Below, in pieces: positions 13,697 through 36,290 of a stretch of DNA of 64,000 nucleotides. Numbering within the stretch: position 1 is the first letter of the stretch; each line of letters starts with the position of its first letter. The notes beneath the pieces were generated by a model, which saw only the letters and a program-made list of their open reading frames with translations, ran no database searches and was not told where the DNA came from. This stretch comes from Dictyostelium discoideum (Eukaryota), in the NCBI GenBank assembly GCA_000004695.1, contig CM000155.2, positions 384,001 to 448,000 of the forward strand. Reading direction: 5' to 3'. Made by a program: the position numbers and the translations under genes.

Positions 13697-13977
13697 ATGA
13701 ATAAAAACAATAACAATAATAATACACCAACATCATCATGGAAATCAGGAACTACTAAACCCACTACAACAACAACTACAACAAATACAACAACAACCAA
13801 TAATAATCCTACTTCACCTAATAAAACACAAACATCAAATGATCTTGATATTGTATCAATATTATCAGCACCACCACCTTCTACTAAAAGAGTTTTCGAT
13901 CCAACTTCTACACCAATAAAAGATAAAAGTTTGTATACATACATTATAATGGTTAAATAATAACACAAAAATAATAA

Positions 13978-14014
<37 letters not shown>

Positions 14015-16747
14015 GAGTACAGGAAGCACAGGTAGTAATAGTTCAGGTAGTAATAGTAATTTATCATCACCAACTAAATCATTAACAATTGAACAACAAC
14101 AACAGCAACAATCTATTGGAAGAAATAATAGTTTTAATATTGGTAGTTTAAAAGCAAATTCATTGAGTAATAGTTCAACAAGTATAGGTAGTGATGTTAA
14201 TTTTATAAATGATCCAAAATTAAAAAATACAAATAATAATAATAAACAACAACAACAACCAATAAATAAAGAATTAATTGATAGTATATTAAATGATGAT
14301 ATTAATGATGATGAGGATGATGAAGTTGGTGAAATAATAATAAATAATAATAGTACTATAAATAATTTTAATTCTGACACAGAGTCAGATTCAGAGGAGG
14401 TCGATCCAGAGATTTTAAAGAAAATATTGAATGAGCAAGATGATGATATTATAATTGACGAAAGTATGACAGTGGATGATATTTTAAAAGAGGTTGCAAC
14501 TCAAGAGGATCAAGAGGAGAGTGAACTATTGAATGAGTTTATAAAGTCACCAATTCTATCACAGATTCAACAGGAATTGGATATAATGGAATCACAGCAA
14601 CCAATGCTATGGCAATCGAGAAACAATAGGTTGGTAGTGAATGGAATTGTAGTGGAACCACAATCCTATACAAAGATATCTGAACAATTATCATCGAGCG
14701 ATATTAGAAAAGTGGTTGGATATCCAACATGTTTCACTGTGTCAAAGTTTATTTGCATTGGTACATCGCATGGGTATTTGATGATTTTCAACTTCAACCA
14801 AGAGTTACTATCGATTATCGGAGGTTCCATATGCTCTGATTGCGGCCCTGTCACCGCCATAGATTCGCCATCATGCAGGGTCAACGAGGACTGGCTGGTC
14901 AGCGGCCACCAGTCAGGCCATATCATACTGTGGGATATAGTGGGTGGCAAACCTATCAAGGTCATAGACAGAATCCATAAGTTGCCATTGGTACACTTGA
15001 AATTCTTTGCTGATGGCGCCAGATTCGTATCGTCCGATTCAAATGGTATCACTAATATCATCTCGATTACCAAAGGTTTCATGTCAATTGGTACCGATCA
15101 ACAATTGTTACTAAATGGTAACTTAGGTCCAGTATTGTCCATCGCGTTATTATTACCAGGCAATCACGACCATCCAACTGATAGACAAGGTATTGTGGCA
15201 TTAGCAACAAGTAGAAAAATATTAATTATTTCAACCTCAAGTGATGGTGTTTCAATTTTAAATAATAAAATTACAAAACCAAAAAATATTAATAATAATA
15301 GTGCATCAGAGGGAGGTAGTGGCGGAGCTTTACCATATTTATCATGGCGTAGAGTGATTTATAATAGATCATTAGGACATACTAAACCATTAGAACCAAT
15401 ACTTGCAATTGGTTGGGGTACATCAATTCAATTACTTCAAATTGTGACAGCACCAAATGATTTTAAATTTCAAGCACCAGAATTTATAGTTGTAGCAAAT
15501 TATCAAACTGATCATACAATTTGTGGTTTGGAATGGTTAGATAGTCAAACTATATTATTCCAAAATTCAAAAGATGAATTAAGAGTATTTGATCCATTCG
15601 CATTGGAGGAGGTTGAAAGTGTTAATATCAAATCTATGCAATTAATTCATCATTCTAAATATCAAGGTATTTCAGTATACTCATTTCATAGTAGTATTAA
15701 AACATTGAAATCTAGAATTTATTTCTTGGGTTTAAATGGTTTATTCACAGCACATATTTTAACATGGATAGAGAGATTATCAATATTGACCACCAATGGC
15801 CAATGGTTTGAAGCATTATGTTTAGCATTGGATTTCTATGAAGGTAAAGCTAAAGCCTGCACAGGTCTATCAAGTAATACTGTGGATTCTAAATACATCA
15901 CGTCAGAGAAAATCGTTGAAATCATATCAAACCTTTGTCAAAGCATTTTCAACATCACTCAACCGGAATTGTTGGCAGGTAAATCGTTAATACCAAAGAG
16001 CTACTATCAACAAATGGACCCTCGTATTGAATATCTCAACATTTACCAACAATTGGCATTGATTTCAATTGAATTTTGTATTGCTATAAAAAGAACCGAT
16101 TTACTATTTGGTGAAGTTTTTAATTATTTCTTTGATAATGATATGAAGAGTTGTATATTGGATTTCTTGGAACCCTATATTCTAAATGATAGACTCACTC
16201 ATTTAAACCCAGAGGTTATGCAATACATGATGACCTATTACCAAGATTTGGGTATATTAGTTAGAGCAGAACAATGTGTACTACATTTGGATATCTCTTC
16301 AATCGATTTTCATCAAACGGTGGTGTTATGTAGAAAACATGGGCTTTACAGCGCATTGATTTATCTCTACAATAAAGGATTGAATGATTATATCACACCA
16401 ATGGAAGATATGATGGAAGTTGTAATTAAACCAAATAATTTAAATAATCAACCAACTGAAATGGATAAAAATTCAAAAAGTGTAGCACAAAGATTACTAC
16501 TCTATTTACAACTTAGTCTATCGGGTAAATCATTTCCTAGTGGTCTAATAGCACCATCACGTGTTTTATCATTAAAATCTGAAATCTATGAATACCTCTT
16601 CCTTTGGAATATCGATCCTGATGATCCAACACCATATCCAAGAATTTATAATTTATTAAAAATGGATACAACTGAATTATTAAAAATTTTATCATTAGGT
16701 TTTTATGATAAAGGTTTTCAAATGTCACCAAATCAGCAACAGCAACC

Positions 16748-16778
<31 letters not shown>

Positions 16779-18983
16779 AATGAAAATAATGAAAACTATT
16801 TAGATGAAACTATACCACAATTAAGTGTACCAAATTTACCATTAAATTTCCCAGTTTCAAGATCAAATTTAACAACATTTAATATGATCTCTGTATTATT
16901 ATTAATTGTTATCGATAAGAGTCAACATCCTTATGAATTGAAACCAAATAATAAATGGCCATTTTCATTCCAACAACAAGGTCAACTGCTTTGTATATTA
17001 GGTAAAGTTTTCATTGATGGTTTATTTCGTGTTGATAATAATCTATTAAATAGAATCATTGGTATGTTATCAGTTACACCAATTGAAAATACACCAATGT
17101 TTGATTTAAAAACTAGACAAAGTGTATTATTAGATATTTTAAAGATTATACTCAATAATAATAATAAGAATAATAAGAATAATAATGGTGGTATGGCAAA
17201 TTTAGGTAGTGATATAAATTATGATAAATTATTAGTTAGTTGTGAAGGTAATGAATTCTTTAAAGTTTGTCAATACATTTATAGTATAAAGAATAATTTC
17301 AATAGAATGATCACTTGTCAAATTAAAGATCCAGATAATAAACAACATTCATTCGATTATATTAGAGAGATTTTAGCAAGACCTTCACTAACAATTGAAC
17401 AACGTGAAACTGTAAAAAATACATCAATTTCAAATTTAGCTCAACTCATTCTAATTGATAGTGTTAAAACTGCTCAATTAATTATGGATTGTTTCTCTAG
17501 TGATCATGAAAAAGTTTTAAGAGAATTAAGTTCATTTCCAAAATTACAATTTACATATTTACAAGGTTTATTTAAAAAAGGTACAACTAGTTCAAATAAT
17601 AATAATGGCAATAATAATGGTAATAATAATAGTAATAATAATAATAATAATAATAACAATGGTAATGGTAATAATAATAATAATGACTTATCAATTATTC
17701 AACAATATGGAATACATATTTCACAAGAAACTCATGAACTTTATTTAAGATTAATGTGTAATTTTTCACCAGAATTAGTTATACGTTATTTATCATCAAA
17801 TGATGATTATCCATTAGATAGTTGTTTAAAGATTTGTCAACAATTTAATAATTTGGAAGGTTCAATTTATTTATTAGAGAGAATTGGTGATGTTTTTAAA
17901 GCATTGGATATGTTATTATTGATATTGAAAGACAAGTTGGATGAATTATTGAAATACTATGTTCAAGTATTTGCAAATGTTAAACAATTAAAAGAATCTG
18001 ATGGTAATAATAATTTACAAGCACCAAGTAAGCAAGAGAAACAAGTGATGACTGATCTTTATTCGGCCATTTCATTATGTCAACGTAATTCACCAAAATT
18101 ACAAGATTCAGAGAATGAGCCATTATGGTTCAGATTATTCGATACCATTGTAACTTGTATTCAAAGAATTAAACAGCAATCGAATCAAGGTGTTTTTAGT
18201 AAACAATCGGCAATCTATTGGAAATCTTTGAATTTCCTCTCGAAATTAGTTCATTCAATTTTAAATTCAATGATGGGTTATGTTGCATTGCCTGTGATTC
18301 TCTCAAGAATTGTCAATGAATATGGTGGTAATGAGTTGGGTGATTTCAAATCAATTATCACCGATATGATGGATACTTGTACTTTTGAAACTATAATCTT
18401 AAAGACTGCAAATGACTTGATTCAAGCTGATATGTTCTCTGCCACTCAAACTTTTGTTGAAAAATTATCACGTGCTTACACTCCAAACATTTCAAAATGT
18501 GGTATGTGCTATCGTCCACTAAGTGAAGCTCCAATAGCAAAACAACAACCAAATCATACTATGGCACTTGATACATTAATTGTATACCAATGTAATCATA
18601 CTTTTCATTCTGAATGTCTTGGAAAACATAAAGTTTGTCCATTATGTTCAAAAGAAAAAGAACGAAAGAAATTACCATCATCATTAACTAGCAATAATAA
18701 TAATATCAATAATAAAACAGTACATCAACAACAACAACAACAAAAAGAAAAAGAAAAAGAAAAAGAAGATGAAGAATTATTAGATGCTGTCAAATTTGAT
18801 GTATCAAAATATGAAAAAGAGAAAACTCAAAAGGAAACTGCTAAATATATGGAAAGATTAGAAAATTATTCAAAATTAAATAGACGTATTGGTTATAGTA
18901 ATTATACTGCTTTTAAATCTTTTGAAAGTCATGATAAAGAACAAAAAAGTCAAAAACCAAAAGGTAGAGTACAACAACATATG

Positions 18984-19015
<32 letters not shown>

Positions 19016-19037
19016 AAAACAAAGACAAAGAAGATAA
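13697..19037 (+). CDS. Large WD40/beta-propeller plus alpha-solenoid protein with a C-terminal RING-H2 finger. It is most consistent with a Vps8-like subunit of the CORVET endosomal tethering complex. Two exons, about 1751 aa.
   Basis: Exon 1 is 13697..13928 (MNKNNNNNNTPTSSW…, phase 1). The intron is 13929..14013 (GTTTGT…TTTAG). Exon 2 is 14014..19037. The ORF-track 'M' at 14163 is a TTG, and the real frame is open back to the acceptor. N-terminal WD-like blades include GTSHGYLMIFNF and VSGHQSGHIILWDIVGG. The middle is long and helical. The C-terminus has CGMCYRPL…CNHTFHSECLGKHKVCPLC, a RING-H2 (C3H2C3). Internal poly-Q and poly-N/G tracts are present. Vps41, Vps11 and Vps18 share the architecture but are shorter, so the Vps8 assignment is inference. 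Confidence 0.6.
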
Positions 19038-19180: not shown

Positions 19181-20869
19181 TTAATTAATATAAGAATTAT
19201 TATTAGTATTATTTAATTTACTATTTCTAATTGAATAAACAAAATAAACAATTGTACCAACAACTGTCCAAATTGCCATACGAATAAAACTAGCTGAATC
19301 TAAATGCATAATGAAATAGGTATTGATAATTATACCAAGACATGGAATAATTGGAACTAATGGACAAAGGAAATAATTACATGTACTTTTATCTAATGTT
19401 TGTTTTTTGAAACAAAGGAGGATGATAAGAGCTAATTGGATCACTGCCAATACAATTTGAATCCAAATTTTCCAACCATTATAACTTGCAGCACCAAATA
19501 CACAAGCGACTACAAATAAGACAAAGAGTACTAATGTGGATGGAATTGGACCATTTTCTGAGCCATCCTCATTTCTATATCTCATTACGACCACACCGGC
19601 GCAAACACAAGTGAATGCAAGTAAAGTACCAATACTAATCATATTAGTTAAATTATCTAAATCTAATACGATAGCGAGTAATGAAGCAAAGCCACAAGTG
19701 AAGAGAATACCAAATACTGGAACTTGTTTTTTATTTAATTCACCAAATTTCTTGAAGAATAAACCATCTTTGGCCATTTGGAGGTAGATACGTGGTTGAC
19801 CAATTAAGCAACATAATGTTGAGGCGGTTAATGAAGTTAATGTACCAAATGCAATGATCATAGCTGCCCATTTCATATCCAAACCATTGTGAATGAATGC
19901 ATCGGATAATGGTGAACCTTGGCTAACTTCACGGAAATTAACCATACCAGAGAGTACCAATGTTACACCAATGTAAAGAGAGGTTGCAATAACTAAGGAA
20001 CCGATAACACCAATTGGAAGATCACGTTTTGGATTCTTAACTTCACCTGCCAATGTTGTTACTGAATCGAATCCTACATAACTAAAGAATACCACTGAAC
20101 ATGCATTGAAAACACCATCGAAACCAAATGGAAGGAAAGGAGTCCAATTTTCAACTTTAACATAGATTGAGCCCAAAACAATGAAAAAGAGAATTGTCAA
20201 AATGTTGATACATGTAATGATCATATTGAATCTAGCGGAATCTTTAATACCAAATACCAAAATTATTGTACAAAATACAATTATAAGTGGTGCAATTGGA
20301 TTAATGTTAATCCAATCATTAATTTGATAACCTTGGATAAATTGTGGTGTTTTAGCACCGAAAATTGAGAAAATTACACTAAAATAACCAACCCAACCCC
20401 TTGCTACCGCCGATGCTGAAATGGCATACTCTAGTGTAAGATTCCACCCAACGAACCAACCCATATATTCACCCAATGAAACGTAGGCAAATGTATAGGC
20501 ACTACCAGATGCTGGAATACGAGCTGAGAATTCCGAATAACAAAATGCGGAAATTAAACAAGCAATTGCAGAGAATAAAAATGATAACAATGTACCCGGA
20601 CCTGCATAGGAGCTAATCGCAATACCAATGGATACAAAAACACCTGCTCCAACTGTACTACCGATACCATAGGAAATGATATCAAATACCGTTAGACATT
20701 TATTCAAATTTCCTTCACCATTGTTGGTTTGTTGATTGTTGTTATCATCATCATCTTGAAATCCATTGACTGGGTATTTTCTAATCAATGAATTTAAACT
20801 ATAAATTTTTCTATTTTTAAGTAGAGGTATATTTTGTTGCTCGCTTGATCGATTCAAGTAACTGGCCAT
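19181..20869 (-). CDS. Amino acid permease of the APC superfamily, cationic amino-acid transporter (CAT/SLC7-like). About 12 transmembrane helices, 562 aa, single exon.
   Basis: The ORF reads MASYLNRSSEQQN… It carries the APC signature around GIGSTVGAGVFVSIGIAISSYAGPG, and …FSYVGFDSVTTLAGEVKNPKRDLP… is characteristic of the CAT subfamily. The protein is hydrophobic throughout. Confidence 0.8.
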   Translation of the reverse strand: MASYLNRSSEQQNIPLLKNRKIYSLNSLIRKYPVNGFQDDDDNNNQQTNNGEGNLNKCLTVFDIISYGIGSTVGAGVFVSIGIAISSYAGPGTLLSFLFSAIACLISAFCYSEFSARIPASGSAYTFAYVSLGEYMGWFVGWNLTLEYAISASAVARGWVGYFSVIFSIFGAKTPQFIQGYQINDWININPIAPLIIVFCTIILVFGIKDSARFNMIITCINILTILFFIVLGSIYVKVENWTPFLPFGFDGVFNACSVVFFSYVGFDSVTTLAGEVKNPKRDLPIGVIGSLVIATSLYIGVTLVLSGMVNFREVSQGSPLSDAFIHNGLDMKWAAMIIAFGTLTSLTASTLCCLIGQPRIYLQMAKDGLFFKKFGELNKKQVPVFGILFTCGFASLLAIVLDLDNLTNMISIGTLLAFTCVCAGVVVMRYRNEDGSENGPIPSTLVLFVLFVVACVFGAASYNGWKIWIQIVLAVIQLALIILLCFKKQTLDKSTCNYFLCPLVPIIPCLGIIINTYFIMHLDSASFIRMAIWTVVGTIVYFVYSIRNSKLNNTNNNSYIN

Positions 20870-21732
20870 TCTTTAATTGGGTTTTGATTAATAATTGTTG
20901 AGAAATTAATTTTCGTTTTTTTTTTTCTATATTAAAAAAATAAATATATTATATATTTATATATTTATTTAGTTTTAATATTATTTTATTGTGTGAATAC
21001 AATTGTAAAAGAATTTTTTAATTTTTCAATTTATACCAAAATTTCGGCCGAAAAAATAAAAAAAAAACTACAAAATGTTTTTTAATTTTTTTTTTTTCCG
21101 ACCCTTTTGATCAGTTTAAATAAAAAAAATAAAATAGATTTTTTTTCACCTAAAAAAGTGAAAAAGATATTTTTTTGTTTTTTCAAAAATGATTAGTTTT
21201 TTTTGTTATTTTTTTAAGAATTTTTTTAATATTGTGCAAACCAGCTCATCAAATAATTTTTTTTAATTTTTTTTGGGCACTACCCAGATTTTTTCATCAT
21301 TATTACATCATATTAATTATTTTTAGTTTTAATTTATTTTAGAATTTCATACCAATCTTATCAAAAAACAATGATCAATTCTCAAATATTTAACATTTTT
21401 ATAATTAACCCAATGTTTTGGCTTTTGAGAATGGAATGGATTTTGAAATAGCTAAGGATACTTCACATCCTAAATTCAAAAAATGTAAAAAGATCTTGAG
21501 ATTTTTTTTTTTTTTTTTTATAATACTAATTTATATTTAATATAGCTATATATAATAAATCATTTTAAAAATAAAAAGTTAAAAAAATAAAATAAAAAAA
21601 TAAAATAAAATGTTTAATTATTTAAAAAGAAATGGTTATTTATTTAAAGGATATTAATAAAGAAAGTAATAATTAAAAATAAAAAATTCCATTTCAAATT
21701 GTTTTATAAGAAAAAGAAAATTTACATTTATT

Positions 21733-21822
21733 TTAAGGTAATTTATATTTATAAATATTAGATAATAATGAATGAGATGAATTTGAATTTATATATGTAC
21801 ATATTCTAGTTTTATTTAATAT

Positions 21823-21854
<32 letters not shown>

Positions 21855-22929
21855 CAGATGATAAAGTTATTTGACCACTTGGATTGTTTGGTGAATTTGA
21901 ATCATTAATTTCTATTTGTTCAATTAATTCCTCATCACAATTACGATTTAATAAAACTCTATAACTTTCAAAATCCCATATATAAAATCCTTGGCCTTCA
22001 ATATGATCAATATTAAAGAATGAAGCATCAGTTATGATATTTTTAACACTTGTAAATAATGCTTGTAACCATTGACCAGAATAAGTCAATGGTTTATTAA
22101 TTTCATTATAAAAGAAATCTTTAGTGATTGGGTTTGTATCTGTTGCATCCAATGGAGTCAATAATAATTTGGGACCCAATGACGATACCATGATTTGAAA
22201 TGCCTTTATATCAACAAAGAGGTTAAACTCTGCCACTGTATTATTCCTATACGTGAATATATTTGCTGGCGCGTCAATTGTACCACCCATTTGTGAGACC
22301 AATTCAATATTATCCACTACGTTGGGATACAAGGTTAGCAATATAGCCAAATCAGTGGCGGGTCCTGCTGATAGAATTTCAATTGGTTCATTTAATTCTA
22401 ATAATTCTTTATTGATTTTTACGAATAATTCAGTACATGACATATTCGTTGGTACTAAACCATTGGTATTATTATTAAAATACTGATCTTTAGTATACCA
22501 TAATGTGTCACCGAGTGCTCTAACTTGGTTATTTGTTGCATTTAAAATACTGATCTCAAAATTTAATGCTGAATCCAATGGTATTGATGAACCTAATGCC
22601 ACAGGTATTGATAATAATTCTTTATATCTATCATTATCTTTCTCTGTCATAAAGTTAAAAACTTTGAAAATAGTATCTAATCCAATTGCTCTCGTTGTAA
22701 ATCCTGTACCTGAAACACAAATACCTCTTAATTTAAATTCTGAATCATTTGATAATATTGATTGTAATGCTATTATATCATCAATATTTGCATCAGTATA
22801 AAAAAATAAATTTCTTTTTTTTAAAATATCTTCATTTTTATCATTTTCTATATTAATTTTTAAACTACAAATATAAAAATTATTAAAAATTATTAAAATT
22901 AAAATTATAGATAATAATTTATATATCAT
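21733..22929 (-). CDS. Secreted inosine-uridine-preferring nucleoside hydrolase-like protein (IU-NH family), 398 aa, single exon, with a C-terminal poly-Ser tract.
   Basis: N-terminus MIYKLLSIILILIIFNNFYICS looks like a signal peptide. YTDANIDDIIAL matches the DxDxxxDD Ca2+/ribose-binding aspartate cluster of IUNH enzymes. …SAGPATDLAILLTLYP… and …EFNLFVDIKAFQIM… resemble the conserved IUNH core. The product call is by motif recall only. Confidence 0.55.
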
Positions 22930-22952
22930 TTTTGTGTTTGAAATAATTTCCC

Positions 22953-22989
<37 letters not shown>

Positions 22990-23955
22990 ATAAAAAAAAA
23001 AACAAAAAAAAAATAAATAAAATTAAAATTAAAAATAAAAATAGGTTTTGTTGGTATAAAAATTTTATTTGGTTTTATATGGGGCCAACTTTTTAATATC
23101 CGGATATTAAAAATTTCAGCATTAAAGTGGTGAAAAGTAATTTTATGTGGCGGTGTCTTGTTGGTAAAAAAAAAAAAAAAAAAAAAAAATTGTTATTTTT
23201 TACTATTTAAACTTTCCTTTTTTAATTTTATATTAAAACCTTTCATTATTTCCATAAATTGAAATATCTCCTTAATATTTATAGATTTTTTAATTTTCTT
23301 TGTAAATAAATTTTTACATTTTATTTTAGGATATCTTACTTCTTTCAGAGATAACTATTAAATTTTTTGTTAAAACAACATATTACAAATTCTTATAAAA
23401 TTTAGATAAAAAAAATCCAAATAAGATTTGATTTTGTTATCATTAAAAATTTCTCAAAATCTTTTTGTAAAATTCAAGATTTAATTTTTAATTTTATATA
23501 TTCATTTATTTTTTTATTTATTAATTTATTTTATCTTTTTTTTTTTTTTTTATTTTTTTTTTTATTTTAAAAAAAGTTAAAAAGTTACTATGTCGGAATT
23601 GTAGAAATAATATAACTCATTTTTTTTTATTTTTAATAAAAACTATTTTAATTGATTTCATAATATTTCAAAACATTTAACAGACTATATTAATAGGTTT
23701 TTCATTAAAATAACATAAATGTTCTTTAAATAAATTTAATATGAACAAAGTAATTATAATTTAAAATTATAAAATTATAAAATAAATTATTTCATTCATA
23801 GTTTGGTATTTTGATGCACCACAACAACCACTTTTTCATTTTTTTATTTTTTTGTAAAATTAAAAACCAATAATAAATAGTGTTTTTTTTACAATTGTTT
23901 TAAAAAATGGGGTATTGATTTTTTCAATCTTTATTTTTTTATTTGATAATTTTTG

Positions 23956-23992
<37 letters not shown>

Positions 23993-24065
23993 CTTATATA
24001 TTTGACAATAGTTATTTTTTTTTTTTTTTTTAAATTTTTTACAAACAAATAAATTTATTTAAAAT

Positions 24066-24418
24066 ATGCCCACAGAGATTAAAATGATTATTAAAAATGG
24101 AGAAGGAGAATCAAAAATAATTGGAAAAGGTAATATAAAATGAATTAAATTATAAATAATTCAACATGTTGAATTAATTCCAATAACTAATTATTTTTAT
24201 AAAATTTAGCAATCACTTTACCAACTCCAAAAATTTTCCCACAACCATTTTTTATACGTTTATCTGAATATACATCAGAAGGTAATCTTTGGGATAATGA
24301 AAATTTTGAATTCAATTCTGGAAAGGTTGAATGCAATGGAGAAGATTATGATCTTGCCCCATCAACTTGTTCATTGGCCAAATTTGATGAAGATGATGGT
24401 TCAAAAAAATTGATATAA
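24066..24418 (+). CDS. Small two-exon gene encoding a 90-aa acidic hypothetical protein.
   Basis: Exon 1 is 24066..24129 (MPTEIKMIIKNGEGESKIIGK, phase 1). The intron is GTAATA…TTTAG. Exon 2 is 24210..24418 (…AITLPTPKIFPQPFFIRLSEYTSEGNLWDNENFEFNSGKVECNGEDYDLAPSTCSLAKFDEDDGSKKLI*). Both splice sites are canonical and the phases close. It is not in the ORF track because each exon is under 60 aa. Confidence 0.45.
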
Positions 24419-24489
24419 GAATAATGCCAACTAGACCTCTTGGAAATGATTTACCATATTTTAATTAAAAAATATATATTATTGTTTCG

Positions 24490-24537
<48 letters not shown>

Positions 24538-29872: not shown

Positions 29873-31521
29873 ATGTCAACTAAACTATTTGTTGGACAAA
29901 TTCCAAAATCATTTAATGAAGAAGAGATTAAAAATTTATTTACCAATATAGCTAATATTGAATCAGTATCATTGATAAAGAATAAAACTACCAATGAGCC
30001 ACAAGGATGTGCATTCGTATCAGTACCATCACGTGAGGAAGCCGACAGAGCCATTGAGCAATTACATAATAGTAAGAAATTCCAAGGCGTATTAAACAAC
30101 TTACAAGTAAAGTATGCCGATAGTGAGCAAGAGAAATTGGCTAGTAAATTATTCGTTGGTATGCTACCCCGTTCCTACGAGGAGGAGCAAATTAGGGAGT
30201 TGTTTGAGCCACATGGTGTTGTTGAGGATATTTGTATTTTACGGGGCCCCAATTCCGAGAGCAAGGGATGCGGTTTCATAAAGTTTGACAACAGAGAATC
30301 TGCTCTCTCTGCCATTGCAACTTTGAATGGTATGAAATTGGACGGTTCACCAAACCCATTGGTTGTAAAATTCGCTGATACTGAAAAAGATAAGAAAAAG
30401 AAACAAAAACAACAACAAATTCAAATTCAAATGCAACAAAGACAACAACAACAGCAACAACAACAACAACAACCATCTCATCAACAACAACAATCTCATC
30501 AACAATCTTTTCAATCACAATATCAACAACCTGTAGTTAATCAATTCCCTCCAAAAATGAATCAACAACCATTCATTGTTAATCCATATTTTGGTCAAAT
30601 GCCAAATTTTAATTTTATTCCAAGTAGTAAGTAATTACTTTTTTTCTATTTTTTTAATATTTTAATAATATATATATTTATAGTAATTTTATTTTATTTT
30701 ATTTTATAGTTGATTCATCACCATCATTATTAGGTACACCACCAATTATTGGTGATGGTATTTATGATATATATTCAAATTCACAATTTGATAATAAATA
30801 TAATAATAATGGTGGTATGGGTGGTAATGGTGGTAATAATGGTAATATGTATGGTAGAAACTTTAACAATGGTAATAATGGTCCAATGGGTGGTATGAAT
30901 GGTAATGGTATGAATAATGGTGGTCCAATGGGTAATGGTATGAACAATGGTGGTCCAATGGGTAATGGTATGAATAATGGCGGTCCAATGGGTAACGGTA
31001 TGAATAATGGTGGTCCAATGGGCAATGGCATGAATGGTAATGGTATGAATGGTAATGGTATGGGTGGTCCAATGGGTAATGGTATGAATAATGGTATGGG
31101 TGGCATGAATCAAGGTGGTCCAATGGGTAATAAAAAGAATCAAAGTGTTGGTCCACAAGGTTCAAATCTATTCGTTTACAATATACCAAATTACTTCTCT
31201 GATAATGATTTACTTGGACTATTCCAACAATATGGTATTGTTGTAAGTGCTAAAGTTTATGTTGATAAAAATACTGGCGTTAGTAAAGGTTTTGGTATGT
31301 TTTTTTTTTTTTTTTTTCCTCTCTCCTTTAATTTATTTAACTAATTTATTAATAATTTTATTTGTCTCTCTCTATCTTTCTCATTTATAGGTTTTGTATC
31401 ATATGATAATCCAGCTTCTGCAAATTTAGCTATTTCTAATTTACATGGTCAAATGATGGCAGGTAAAAAATTGAAGGTTTCACTCAAGCAAACTTCTGGT
31501 CAAGGTTCCCAACCATATTAA
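29873..31521 (+). CDS. CELF/Bruno-like RNA-binding protein with three RRMs. It has a poly-Q linker and a Gly/Asn/Met-rich repeat region. Three exons.
   Basis: Exons are 29873..30626, 30710..31294 and 31391..31521, with donors GTAAGT and GTATGT, and the phases close. RRM1 is LFVGQIPKSFNEEEIKNLF…GCAFVSV. RRM2 is LFVGMLPRSYEEEQIRELF…KGCGFIKF. RRM3 is LFVYNIPNYFSDNDLLGLFQQYGIVVSAKVYVDKNTGVSKGFG|FVSYDNPASANLAISNLHGQMMAGKKLKVSLKQ, with the RNP-1 KGFGFVSY spanning intron 2. Exon 2 holds five tandem 30-bp units encoding NGGPMGNGMN. Confidence 0.8.
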
Positions 31522-34714: not shown

Positions 34715-36290
34715 TTATTGTTTTGAAGAAATTGAAATTTTTTGAATATCTAAAATAAAACCTTGACCAAAAATTCTATTTCCAAGTATAGATTTTTCAT
34801 CATGGAATTTTAATTCTTTTTCTAAATTTGTTGGATCATAATATTTATTTGAAGGATCATCTAAACGAACTAAAGCCATATTTTTACCAGCGATAGTTGC
34901 ATCCAATATTGAAAAGACACCAAAACAAACTTGAACGCCAGTTGGAAAGGCCAAAGTTTCAACACCGCCTTTTGACATTATCAAAGAACCACCTCTTTCA
35001 ACCAACTGTTGATCTCCAACCAATTGTGAGAAATGACCAACTTGATCAACTTTGAATACTTCCTTATCATCGAGATACCAATGAATGGATTTCTTTTCAC
35101 CATTATACTCAACCGAGACATCATTGAATTTCGACTGATCCTTGATATCAGCTACGGGGATAGTGTAAACAAAGGCGGCGTAATTGCCCAACTCTTCACC
35201 TCTTGAAAATGGTAAACGTTCATAGAGTGCGTAAAGCTTTGAGTTTGAAATCATGAAATCTGCAACTATACTAGTCTTAAAATCCAATACATTCAAAGAA
35301 CCACTAGCAAATCTTATCTCACTTTCAATATCATCTTGCTCAACCAAGTCCAATGGAAATGGGTGATTCTTATTACCCAACGCTTTACCACGAATTGAAA
35401 AATTCGAGAATAAACTACCACCTTGTGGAATTGAAAATACTTGATTAGAAACTGCTAAATATTTAATATGATCCAATACACTTAATTCAGTAGTTAAAGT
35501 GAATGGATTCGATTCCAATCTAATATACCCATCCTCTTTTGACAACGTACCTTGCTCAGCAACGAATGAACCAAATTGAAAATTATTCCATTTTCCATCT
35601 ACACCACCACTACCACCACCACTACCACCACCAATATTCAATTTATTTAAAACAGTAATACCCAAATCTTTTAATTTAGCAAAATTTGAAAAATCAAAAG
35701 TTTCCATTAACTTCATTTTCAAATCACCTATGGCATCTTTAGTATGTTCAAGGACTTTTTCAGTATCTTCTTTCCCACTATTTAAATTGTCTTTTAAATC
35801 ATGTGATTTTGATTTTATATTCTCTTTTAAATCTTTTGATTTCTCTTTAACTTTTTCAAATTTTGATTTTGAACCTTGTTTTAATTGTTCCTTTTTCTCT
35901 TTAAATTGATTTGATAAATCATCTACCTCTTCATTTAAATTATGATGATGGAGATGTTTATTCTTTTCTTGATTAAAAGTTTCTTTTCTATCTTTTAAAT
36001 CTTGTTCAAGTTTATCTTTATATTGATCTTTTTTCTCTTTAATATCGTCAATGATTTTATTTGATTTATCTTTTAATTGCTCTTTTTTCTCTTTACCTTT
36101 TTCTTTTAATTGTTGACCTTGATTCTCAATCTTTGTAGTTGTCTCTGATTTAAACTTTGAAAATTGTGATTGAATTGGTAAATAGAATTTCGAATAAAAT
36201 ACTGGTGTACTAGATGATAGAATTCTAGTAATTTGAGTATTAAATAAGAATAAACATAAAATTAAAACTATTGATGTTATAATTAAAAAT
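34715..36290 (-). CDS. Type II membrane protein. It has an N-terminal signal-anchor, a long Lys/Glu-rich coiled-coil stalk, and a C-terminal globular domain of about 330 aa of unknown family. The 5' end and start codon are unresolved.
   Basis: The continuous minus-strand frame from about 36290 to the stop at 34715 reads …NRFLIITSIVLILCLFLFNTQITRIL… (transmembrane anchor). Then comes …QLKEKGKEKKEQLKDKSNKIIDDIKEKKDQYKDKLEQDLKDRKETFNQEKNKHLHHHNLNEEVDDLSNQFKEKKEQLK… (coiled coil). The ORF-track domain follows (…GTLSKEDGYIRLESNPFTLTTELSV…RLDDPSNKYYDPTNLEKELKFHDEK…). The only nearby ATG (MNIKKLLKKHLH at about 36335) is in a different frame from the transmembrane segment. The true 5' end is therefore unresolved, by either a poly(A) length error or a small upstream exon. 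Confidence 0.5.

Follow-up and report, generated by a model that had tools for sequence, protein, structure and literature searches.

We examined a G+C-rich patch in the gene for a Vps8 homologue of Dictyostelium discoideum AX4. The gene lies in a stretch of 64,000 nucleotides of contig CM000155.2 (GenBank assembly GCA_000004695.1, positions 384,001 to 448,000), which we refer to as the window and whose numbering we use throughout. The patch consists of about 20 silent changes from A/T to G/C that occurred in the D. discoideum lineage only, within the last ~7–8% of sequence divergence; a zone of ~400 bp to either side of the ~150-bp core gained such changes too. One branch after another contributed further substitutions, and the shoulders of the patch are still gaining them. 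We explain the patch best as a trace left by molecular evolution and as neither a functional element nor foreign DNA. The sequence comparisons point to a sustained hotspot of substitution biased from A/T to G/C (AT→GC), and we give about even credence to GC-biased gene conversion (gBGC) or GC-biased repair at a local recombination or repair hotspot as its driver. Clustered substitution with this bias is a phenomenon of a known type, here apparently in an organism in which it had not been described before. In the limited collection of literature that we searched, the evidence of gBGC for Dictyostelium was only coarse or indirect, and discrete spikes of G+C within exons were not described. The D. 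discoideum genome is among the most AT-rich of eukaryotes, and discrete, young, silent AT→GC spikes of ~150 bp show that a strong local force opposes its mutation pressure.

Composition and distribution of the patch

The host gene encodes a homologue of Vps8, a subunit of CORVET (Table 1). Its two-exon spliced model is an exact match to the D. discoideum AX4 protein XP_635240.1 (Q54EK0), which the databases annotate as a “RING zinc finger-containing protein.” In this protein, Pfam identifies the VPS8_N beta-propeller (amino acids 291–665, E = 1.5e-268), the TPR_Vps8 central region, and a C-terminal RING. The core of the patch corresponds to about 50 codons (approximately amino acids 348–398), which lie within the N-terminal beta-propeller.

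Table 1. Features of the window that are discussed in the text. W is A/T and S is G/C; “stem” is the stem of the D. discoideum complex.
Feature	Coordinates	Strand	Remarks
Vps8 (CORVET subunit) homologue, host gene	13697–19037	+	Exon 1, 13697–13928; intron, 13929–14013; exon 2, 14014–19037
Core of the G+C-rich patch	14826–14975	+	All stem changes silent
Whole zone of raised GC3 (core plus shoulders)	14313–15182	+	Bell-shaped GC3 profile
138-amino-acid antisense open reading frame	14666–15082	-	Open only in the D. discoideum complex (AX4, FIR, and FIY)
Second, stronger patch, in an amino-acid-transporter gene (Aa_trans family, according to the annotation of orthologues)	44975–45124 (zone ~44760–45330)	+	In exon 44409–45587
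Third cluster (weaker); its gene encodes an RRM-domain protein (Pfam RRM_1)	30125–30274	+	Stem: 9 W→S versus 1 S→W
Fourth cluster (weak); its gene encodes a DUF6081 protein	35000–35149	-	16 sites are G/C in AX4 and FIR and A/T in D. citrinum, versus 6 other

The initial annotation had put the G+C content at 50–55% over about 300 bp. This is correct for the central 150–200 bp (53.3% across the core, and 59% at 14838–14935) but not for the full interval (45.8% at 14780–15100). The best 100-bp stretch, 14820–14919, is 61% G+C and ranks second in the window, which is 22.9% G+C overall. Across 2,816 coding intervals of 150 bp, the mean G+C content is 0.288 (standard deviation 0.062), and only this patch and another one near 45.0 kb reach at least 0.50.

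We also profiled the proportion of G or C at third codon positions (GC3) along Vps8, with the long open reading frame (ORF) at 14163–19037 as the reading frame. Over 30 codons, GC3 peaks at 0.70–0.73 in the patch, versus a mean of 0.20 for Vps8. The patch is not sharp, as had been thought at first: the profile is bell-shaped, with shoulders of GC3 0.3–0.5 that run from ~14313 to ~15182. Codon adaptiveness, for which 15 other ORFs in the window supplied a reference set of 8,687 codons, is at its lowest in Vps8 at 14841–14930 (0.141, versus 0.63 gene-wide). Furthermore, codons that account for less than 10% of their synonymous family make up 24 of the 47 degenerate codons in the core versus 69 of 1,295 elsewhere in Vps8. 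Both profiles show a clear local deviation at the patch, and the codon usage is indeed atypical for Dictyostelium, as proposed. For comparison, we considered a control stretch in a cationic amino-acid transporter gene that is also G+C-rich (20389–20488, 49% G+C). Its G+C content is 0.43–0.49 in all six of the other genomes compared; because it is similarly G+C-rich in every species, we attribute this stretch to amino-acid composition and regard it as a conserved feature.

Syntenic loci were obtained via the cluster members of the adjoining transporter gene (19184–20869), and contigs were fetched with 10-kb flanks. The assemblies were those of Holland and colleagues (2025; 10.1101/2025.08.01.668227) and the D. 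firmibasis genome. Searches for protein homologues and in metagenomes added the Vps8 of a metagenomic dictyostelid, which has 74% amino-acid identity to that of AX4. As shown in Table 2, only members of the D. discoideum complex have the patch, and they have it to different degrees, with FIZ as the intermediate state. In the aligned codons, no GC3 peak was found in D. citrinum, D. dimigraforme, D. firmibasis, or the metagenomic relative, so the patch is not an old feature shared among orthologues.

Table 2. Lineages compared, with divergence from AX4 outside the patch and composition of the patch. Core GC3 is from 20-codon windows, and total G+C is for the equivalent of 14826–14975.
Lineage	Assembly	Locus	Divergence from AX4	Core GC3	Total G+C
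D. discoideum AX4	GCA_000004695.1			0.75–0.8	0.53
“D. discoideum” (FIR)	GCA_054859385.1	L008	2–3%	0.85	0.56
D. cf. discoideum (FIY)	GCA_054859205.1	L011	2–3%	0.7–0.75	0.54
D. cf. discoideum (FIZ)	GCA_054859235.1	L012	2–3%	0.45–0.5	0.47
D. citrinum		L007	7–8.5%	0.3	0.41
D. dimigraforme		L010	11%	0.2–0.25	0.38
D. firmibasis		L009	12%	0.05–0.25	0.37
Metagenomic dictyostelid			28%	0–0.15 (0.03–0.2 across the patch)	

The initial annotation also reported the encoded peptide and an antisense ORF of 138 amino acids, and both are correct. The antisense frame contains six stop codons in D. citrinum and in D. dimigraforme and seven in D. firmibasis. Formally, then, the ORF is newly opened, and one might suppose that a newborn antisense protein-coding gene under selection has driven the G+C enrichment, as the frame is open in AX4, FIR, and FIY but laden with stops in the other three species. 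We consider this to be highly improbable. The antisense frame shares its third positions with the sense frame, and when A/T is removed from these positions, stop codons are expected to disappear as a side effect. The product of the ORF has no match in Pfam, and nothing suggests a new gene at the other three clusters with the same signature (see below). The ORF is probably a by-product of the G+C enrichment.

Direction and order of the substitutions

We polarised the changes by using D. citrinum together with either D. dimigraforme or D. firmibasis. In the 150 sites of the core, 17 W→S changes, 1 S→W change, and 1 neutral change fell on the stem of the D. discoideum complex (0.127 changes per site), and 18 of these 19 were at third positions. 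On the same stem, the 1,632 sites in the rest of Vps8 had 29 W→S, 26 S→W, and 14 neutral changes (0.042 per site). The direction of change differs between the core and the rest of the gene (17:1 versus 29:26; Fisher p = 0.0015). When 23 kb of the alignment was scanned site by site, the top interval was 14840–14989, with 19 W→S changes at 79 W sites versus a regional rate of 1.98% (binomial p = 1.2e-15). The W→S rate per A/T site in the core is about 10 times the regional rate, and the overall substitution rate in the zone is raised 2- to 3-fold. Most of the changes in the core are T→C or A→G transitions (TGT→TGC, GGT→GGC, AAT→AAC, GAA→GAG, AGA→AGG, CAT→CAC, and CTA→CTG). The core protein of AX4 is identical to that of D. 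citrinum, which confirms that the anomaly is at the level of the nucleotides and not of the protein.

The derived G/C states are nested. Five of them are also found in D. citrinum, seven are found in all four lineages of the complex, and eight are found only in AX4, FIR, and FIY. FIZ and the three outgroups have A/T at each of the latter eight sites. Several further derived G/C states each occur in one lineage alone. Lineage-private W→S clusters also flank the core at 14360–14509 in AX4 (8 W→S versus 2 other changes) and at 14560–14709 in FIR (10 versus 2). On the terminal branches of AX4, FIR, and FIY, the frequency of third-position W→S changes per W site was 0.082 in the shoulders versus 0.0196 in the rest of the gene (4.2-fold, p = 1.4e-9).

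The nested states and the intermediate FIZ imply that the changes arose in place, in several successive events. This staircase of derived states is incompatible with a chimeric assembly, with one introgression or ectopic conversion from a donor, and with one burst of mutation. More broadly, we give almost no credence to an origin in a single event, whether the event was introgression, ectopic conversion by a donor of higher G+C content, horizontal acquisition of a fragment, a mutational burst, or an artefact of assembly or polishing. All that speaks for such an event is that, at first sight, the patch looks like an island of foreign composition in an AT-rich gene. Four independent assemblies contain the patch, AX4 and three others (FIR, FIY, and FIZ), and they were made with different technologies (10.1101/2025.08.01.668227), which contradicts the initial suggestion of a chimera. 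A diverged donor would have brought S→W, neutral, and replacement differences as well, but the protein is identical to D. citrinum's, and graded states with FIZ in between would require successive events in any case. Also, all of the group-4 dictyostelid loci that were sampled are AT-rich. A BLASTN search with 14780–15100 against plasmids, E. coli genomes, and phages found no match, and hence there is no sign of contamination from a vector or from prey. Silent changes in a 17:1:1 ratio, nested and with an intermediate state, are not what introgression or conversion from a G+C-richer donor would leave. Of the earlier proposal of gene conversion, what stands is allelic GC-biased conversion, and not copying from a donor.

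Elsewhere in Vps8, FIR has two further private AT→GC clusters, at 15710–15859 (8 W→S versus 0 other changes) and at 16180–16329 (8 versus 1). Region-wide, the numbers of W→S versus S→W changes were 171 versus 64 on the AX4 branch, 200 versus 85 on the FIR branch, and 202 versus 238 on the FIY branch. An apparent cluster in D. dimigraforme at 16740–16889 (19 apparent W→S changes, CAA→CAG) is in a poly-glutamine tract and probably reflects repeat turnover or an effect of the alignment, so we did not count it.

Other clusters in the window

Three other AT→GC clusters, likewise specific to D. discoideum and each in an unrelated exon, were identified in the window (Table 1). The stronger patch near 45 kb reaches a GC3 of 0.95 over 20 codons (45003–45062). 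At 31 sites, AX4 and FIR have G/C and D. citrinum has A/T, versus 4 other differences. This patch is also found in FIR, where it is broader, whereas D. citrinum and D. purpureum lack it. Its plus strand is G-rich (GC skew +0.40), with a borderline G4Hunter maximum of 1.2. The cluster in the RRM-domain gene is the second-best 150-bp interval of the 23-kb scan, and its G+C content is 0.47 in AX4 versus 0.37 in D. citrinum. In the DUF6081 gene, the G+C content is 0.36–0.38 versus 0.28, with a bump in GC3 of 0.55.

A search for motifs shared among the four patches found only chance k-mers. We considered a periodicity of ~15 kb (14.9, 30.2, and 45.0 kb) and dropped it, because the cluster at 35.1 kb breaks the spacing. 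Three of the four clusters (14900, 35075, and 45045) are centred ~1.1–1.4 kb downstream of the start codon (13697, 36445, and 43952, respectively), but this sample is too small to judge.

The D. purpureum orthologue of the transporter gene with the 45-kb patch (locus L004) has two introns, at 2386–2460 and 2795–2845 (approximately 44604 and 44931 of the window), that are missing from AX4, D. citrinum, and P. violaceum. One of these introns sits just upstream of the 45-kb patch, but intron state does not follow the patch. We rejected a link to intron loss: the absence of the introns is common to AX4 and to D. citrinum, which lacks the patch, and there is no intron difference at the Vps8 patch in any species compared (a single tblastn alignment spans it).

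Forces that could build the patch

One possibility is that selection acts on the nucleotides themselves, either by slowing the ribosome at rare codons while the beta-propeller folds or by maintaining a G+C-rich element in the DNA or RNA (a nucleosome-positioning site, a protein-binding site, or local mRNA structure, for example). In line with this, the core is the strongest rare-codon cluster in Vps8, and all four clusters in the window are in exons that encode conserved folded domains. Conserved rare-codon clusters are thought to tune co-translational folding, and they are defined by their positional conservation among orthologues. The Vps8 core resembles them in that the rarest synonymous codons are densely packed within a folded domain, but it is absent from the sister species, at ~7–8% divergence. 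In addition, each of ~20 silent changes of tiny effect would require positive selection, G/C→A/T changes are not suppressed, and the same signature recurs in four unrelated proteins with differing codon choice. Scans of the whole 64-kb window found no tRNA and no Rfam family at its gathering score. The predicted folding of the patch RNA showed no excess of structure over dinucleotide shuffles (z = 0.25 for the plus strand and 0.05 for the minus strand), and G4Hunter scores for the Vps8 patch (maximum 0.88, minimum -0.76) were below the usual threshold of ~1.2–1.5 for G-quadruplex propensity. Overall, selection of this kind seems improbable. The same goes for local codon selection, which the initial annotation had mentioned: the codons gained are the rarest ones, the 45-kb patch chose GGG instead of GGC, and the position is not conserved.

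Classically, gBGC at a recombination or repair hotspot leaves a localised, direction-specific, and sustained acceleration that is blind to codon optimality and that turns up again in unrelated genes. Of the features expected at such a hotspot, we observed the clustering of substitutions on one lineage, the excess of W→S changes, and recurrence at unrelated exons. We also observed lineage specificity and turnover of the hot site, which is absent outside the complex, intermediate in FIZ, and privately extended in AX4 and FIR. If gBGC or biased repair is responsible, then heteroduplex DNA would form repeatedly at one site, which would be a local hotspot of recombination or repair, and mismatches there would be resolved toward G:C, overriding a mutation pressure that is AT-biased 10:1 in this species. 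Because the effective population size is very large (Ne, ~1.5e7), even a weak bias would be effective. Purifying selection held the core protein unchanged while the silent sites shifted; the rare codons and the open antisense frame would be by-products.

The background known for D. discoideum is compatible with gBGC. In mutation-accumulation lines, the rate of G/C→A/T mutation was 4.36e-11 versus 0.44e-11 for A/T→G/C, which corresponds to an equilibrium G+C content of 9.2%, and Ne was estimated at ~1.5e7 (PMC7466956). As mutation pressure is 10:1 toward A/T, a local force must oppose mutation at the patch. Chromosome size and G+C content are correlated in D. discoideum (r = -0.94; PMC5635611), which is compatible with gBGC. 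In Dictyostelium, exons have a higher G+C content beside introns that were lost, and the authors of that study interpreted this as a sign of gene-conversion hotspots (PMC4683709). Also, meiotic recombination in D. discoideum is very frequent (33.5 Morgans over 34 Mb), and it proceeds without Spo11, by an unexplained route (PMC6369745).

Several observations weigh against gBGC. Crossovers that have been mapped in D. discoideum reportedly lie preferentially in intervals of low G+C content (PMC6369745). Pure fixation bias predicts a deficit of S→W changes in the tract, but none is seen on the terminal branches: S→W changes per S site were 0.036 in the core (2 of 56), 0.022 in the shoulders (3 of 138), and 0.012 elsewhere (5 of 419), although these are few events. 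(In these counts, the ancestral A/T of the early-branching FIZ was not taken as reversal.) Fourfold-degenerate sites went to C in the Vps8 patch (GGT→GGC, with no GGG) but to G in the 45-kb patch (GGT→GGG, six times), even though both genes are on the plus strand. Symmetric gBGC does not predict such opposite preferences at the two strongest patches. Across the same 44 kb, the D. citrinum branch has no comparably clean W→S cluster. Finally, all four clusters are exonic and none is in the non-coding DNA of the window, which is not significant with n = 4 in a genome that is 62% coding.

These observations make a local, possibly strand-asymmetric, mutational hotspot without any fixation bias a serious rival. 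In this case, the rate of A/T→G/C mutation would be raised by a recurrent lesion or by error-prone repair, and drift would fix the silent ones; candidates include a translesion polymerase and repair synthesis after recurrent breaks or after transcription-replication conflict. The roughly 4-fold rise of W→S changes on the terminal branches, with S→W changes not lowered and if anything higher, agrees with this, as does the raised overall substitution rate in the zone. The opposite preferences for G and C at the two strongest patches hint at a strand-asymmetric process. However, we know of no spontaneous process with a near-pure output of A/T→G/C changes over 150 bp, and the process would have to stay localised through the whole history of the species complex. 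Genome-wide, mutations run 10:1 the other way, with a bias to transversions (PMC7466956), whereas the changes in the Vps8 patch are mostly transitions. We regard a purely mutational hotspot as less likely than gBGC, but it deserves more weight than selection on the nucleotides.

Hotspots of gBGC, or of biased and clustered substitution, are known in mammals, birds, and yeast, with the W→S-biased “accelerated regions” as one example. Another is mouse Fxy, which reportedly became a gBGC hotspot after its move into the pseudoautosomal region. Like the Vps8 patch, these hotspots are short tracts (~100–1,000 bp) with a strongly raised rate and with nearly all changes being A/T→G/C, and they are lineage-specific, indifferent to codon optimality, and found at several unrelated loci. 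In contrast to them, the host genome here is 22% G+C, it lacks Spo11, and only silent sites changed; no deficit of S→W changes was detected in the patch (among few events). Moreover, the Vps8 patch is at a place where no recombination hotspot is known, in a species whose mapped crossovers are reported to favour low G+C (PMC6369745). The G+C-rich exon flanks of lost introns (PMC4683709) are similar to the patch in that they are from the same organism, show local enrichment in exons, and have also been ascribed to biased conversion, but they are a statistical shift over hundreds of intron positions relative to D. purpureum instead of a discrete 150-bp spike.

If GC-biased conversion is the cause, then the spikes would mark sites of repeated heteroduplex formation and would offer a cheap comparative handle on the initiation of recombination in social amoebae. 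More tentatively, the G+C spikes might be footprints of initiation sites of Spo11-independent meiotic recombination, or of some other site-specific GC-biased repair that is peculiar to the D. discoideum lineage; we doubt this more than we believe it. The window has about one spike per 10–15 kb, and if the spikes do mark initiation sites, then a genome-wide comparison of AX4 and D. citrinum would give the first sequence-level map of initiation. The spikes also produce runs of the rarest codons, spurious long antisense ORFs, and locally “accelerated” synonymous evolution. Gene finders, models of codon usage, and selection tests that are applied to Dictyostelium can be led astray by each of these by-products.

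The gene content beside the transporter gene that adjoins Vps8 (21500–24500) varies among the genomes. The region of the AX4 nucleoside-hydrolase gene is missing from the alignment with D. citrinum. In FIZ, three tandem genes of 439 amino acids each lie upstream of the transporter gene instead.

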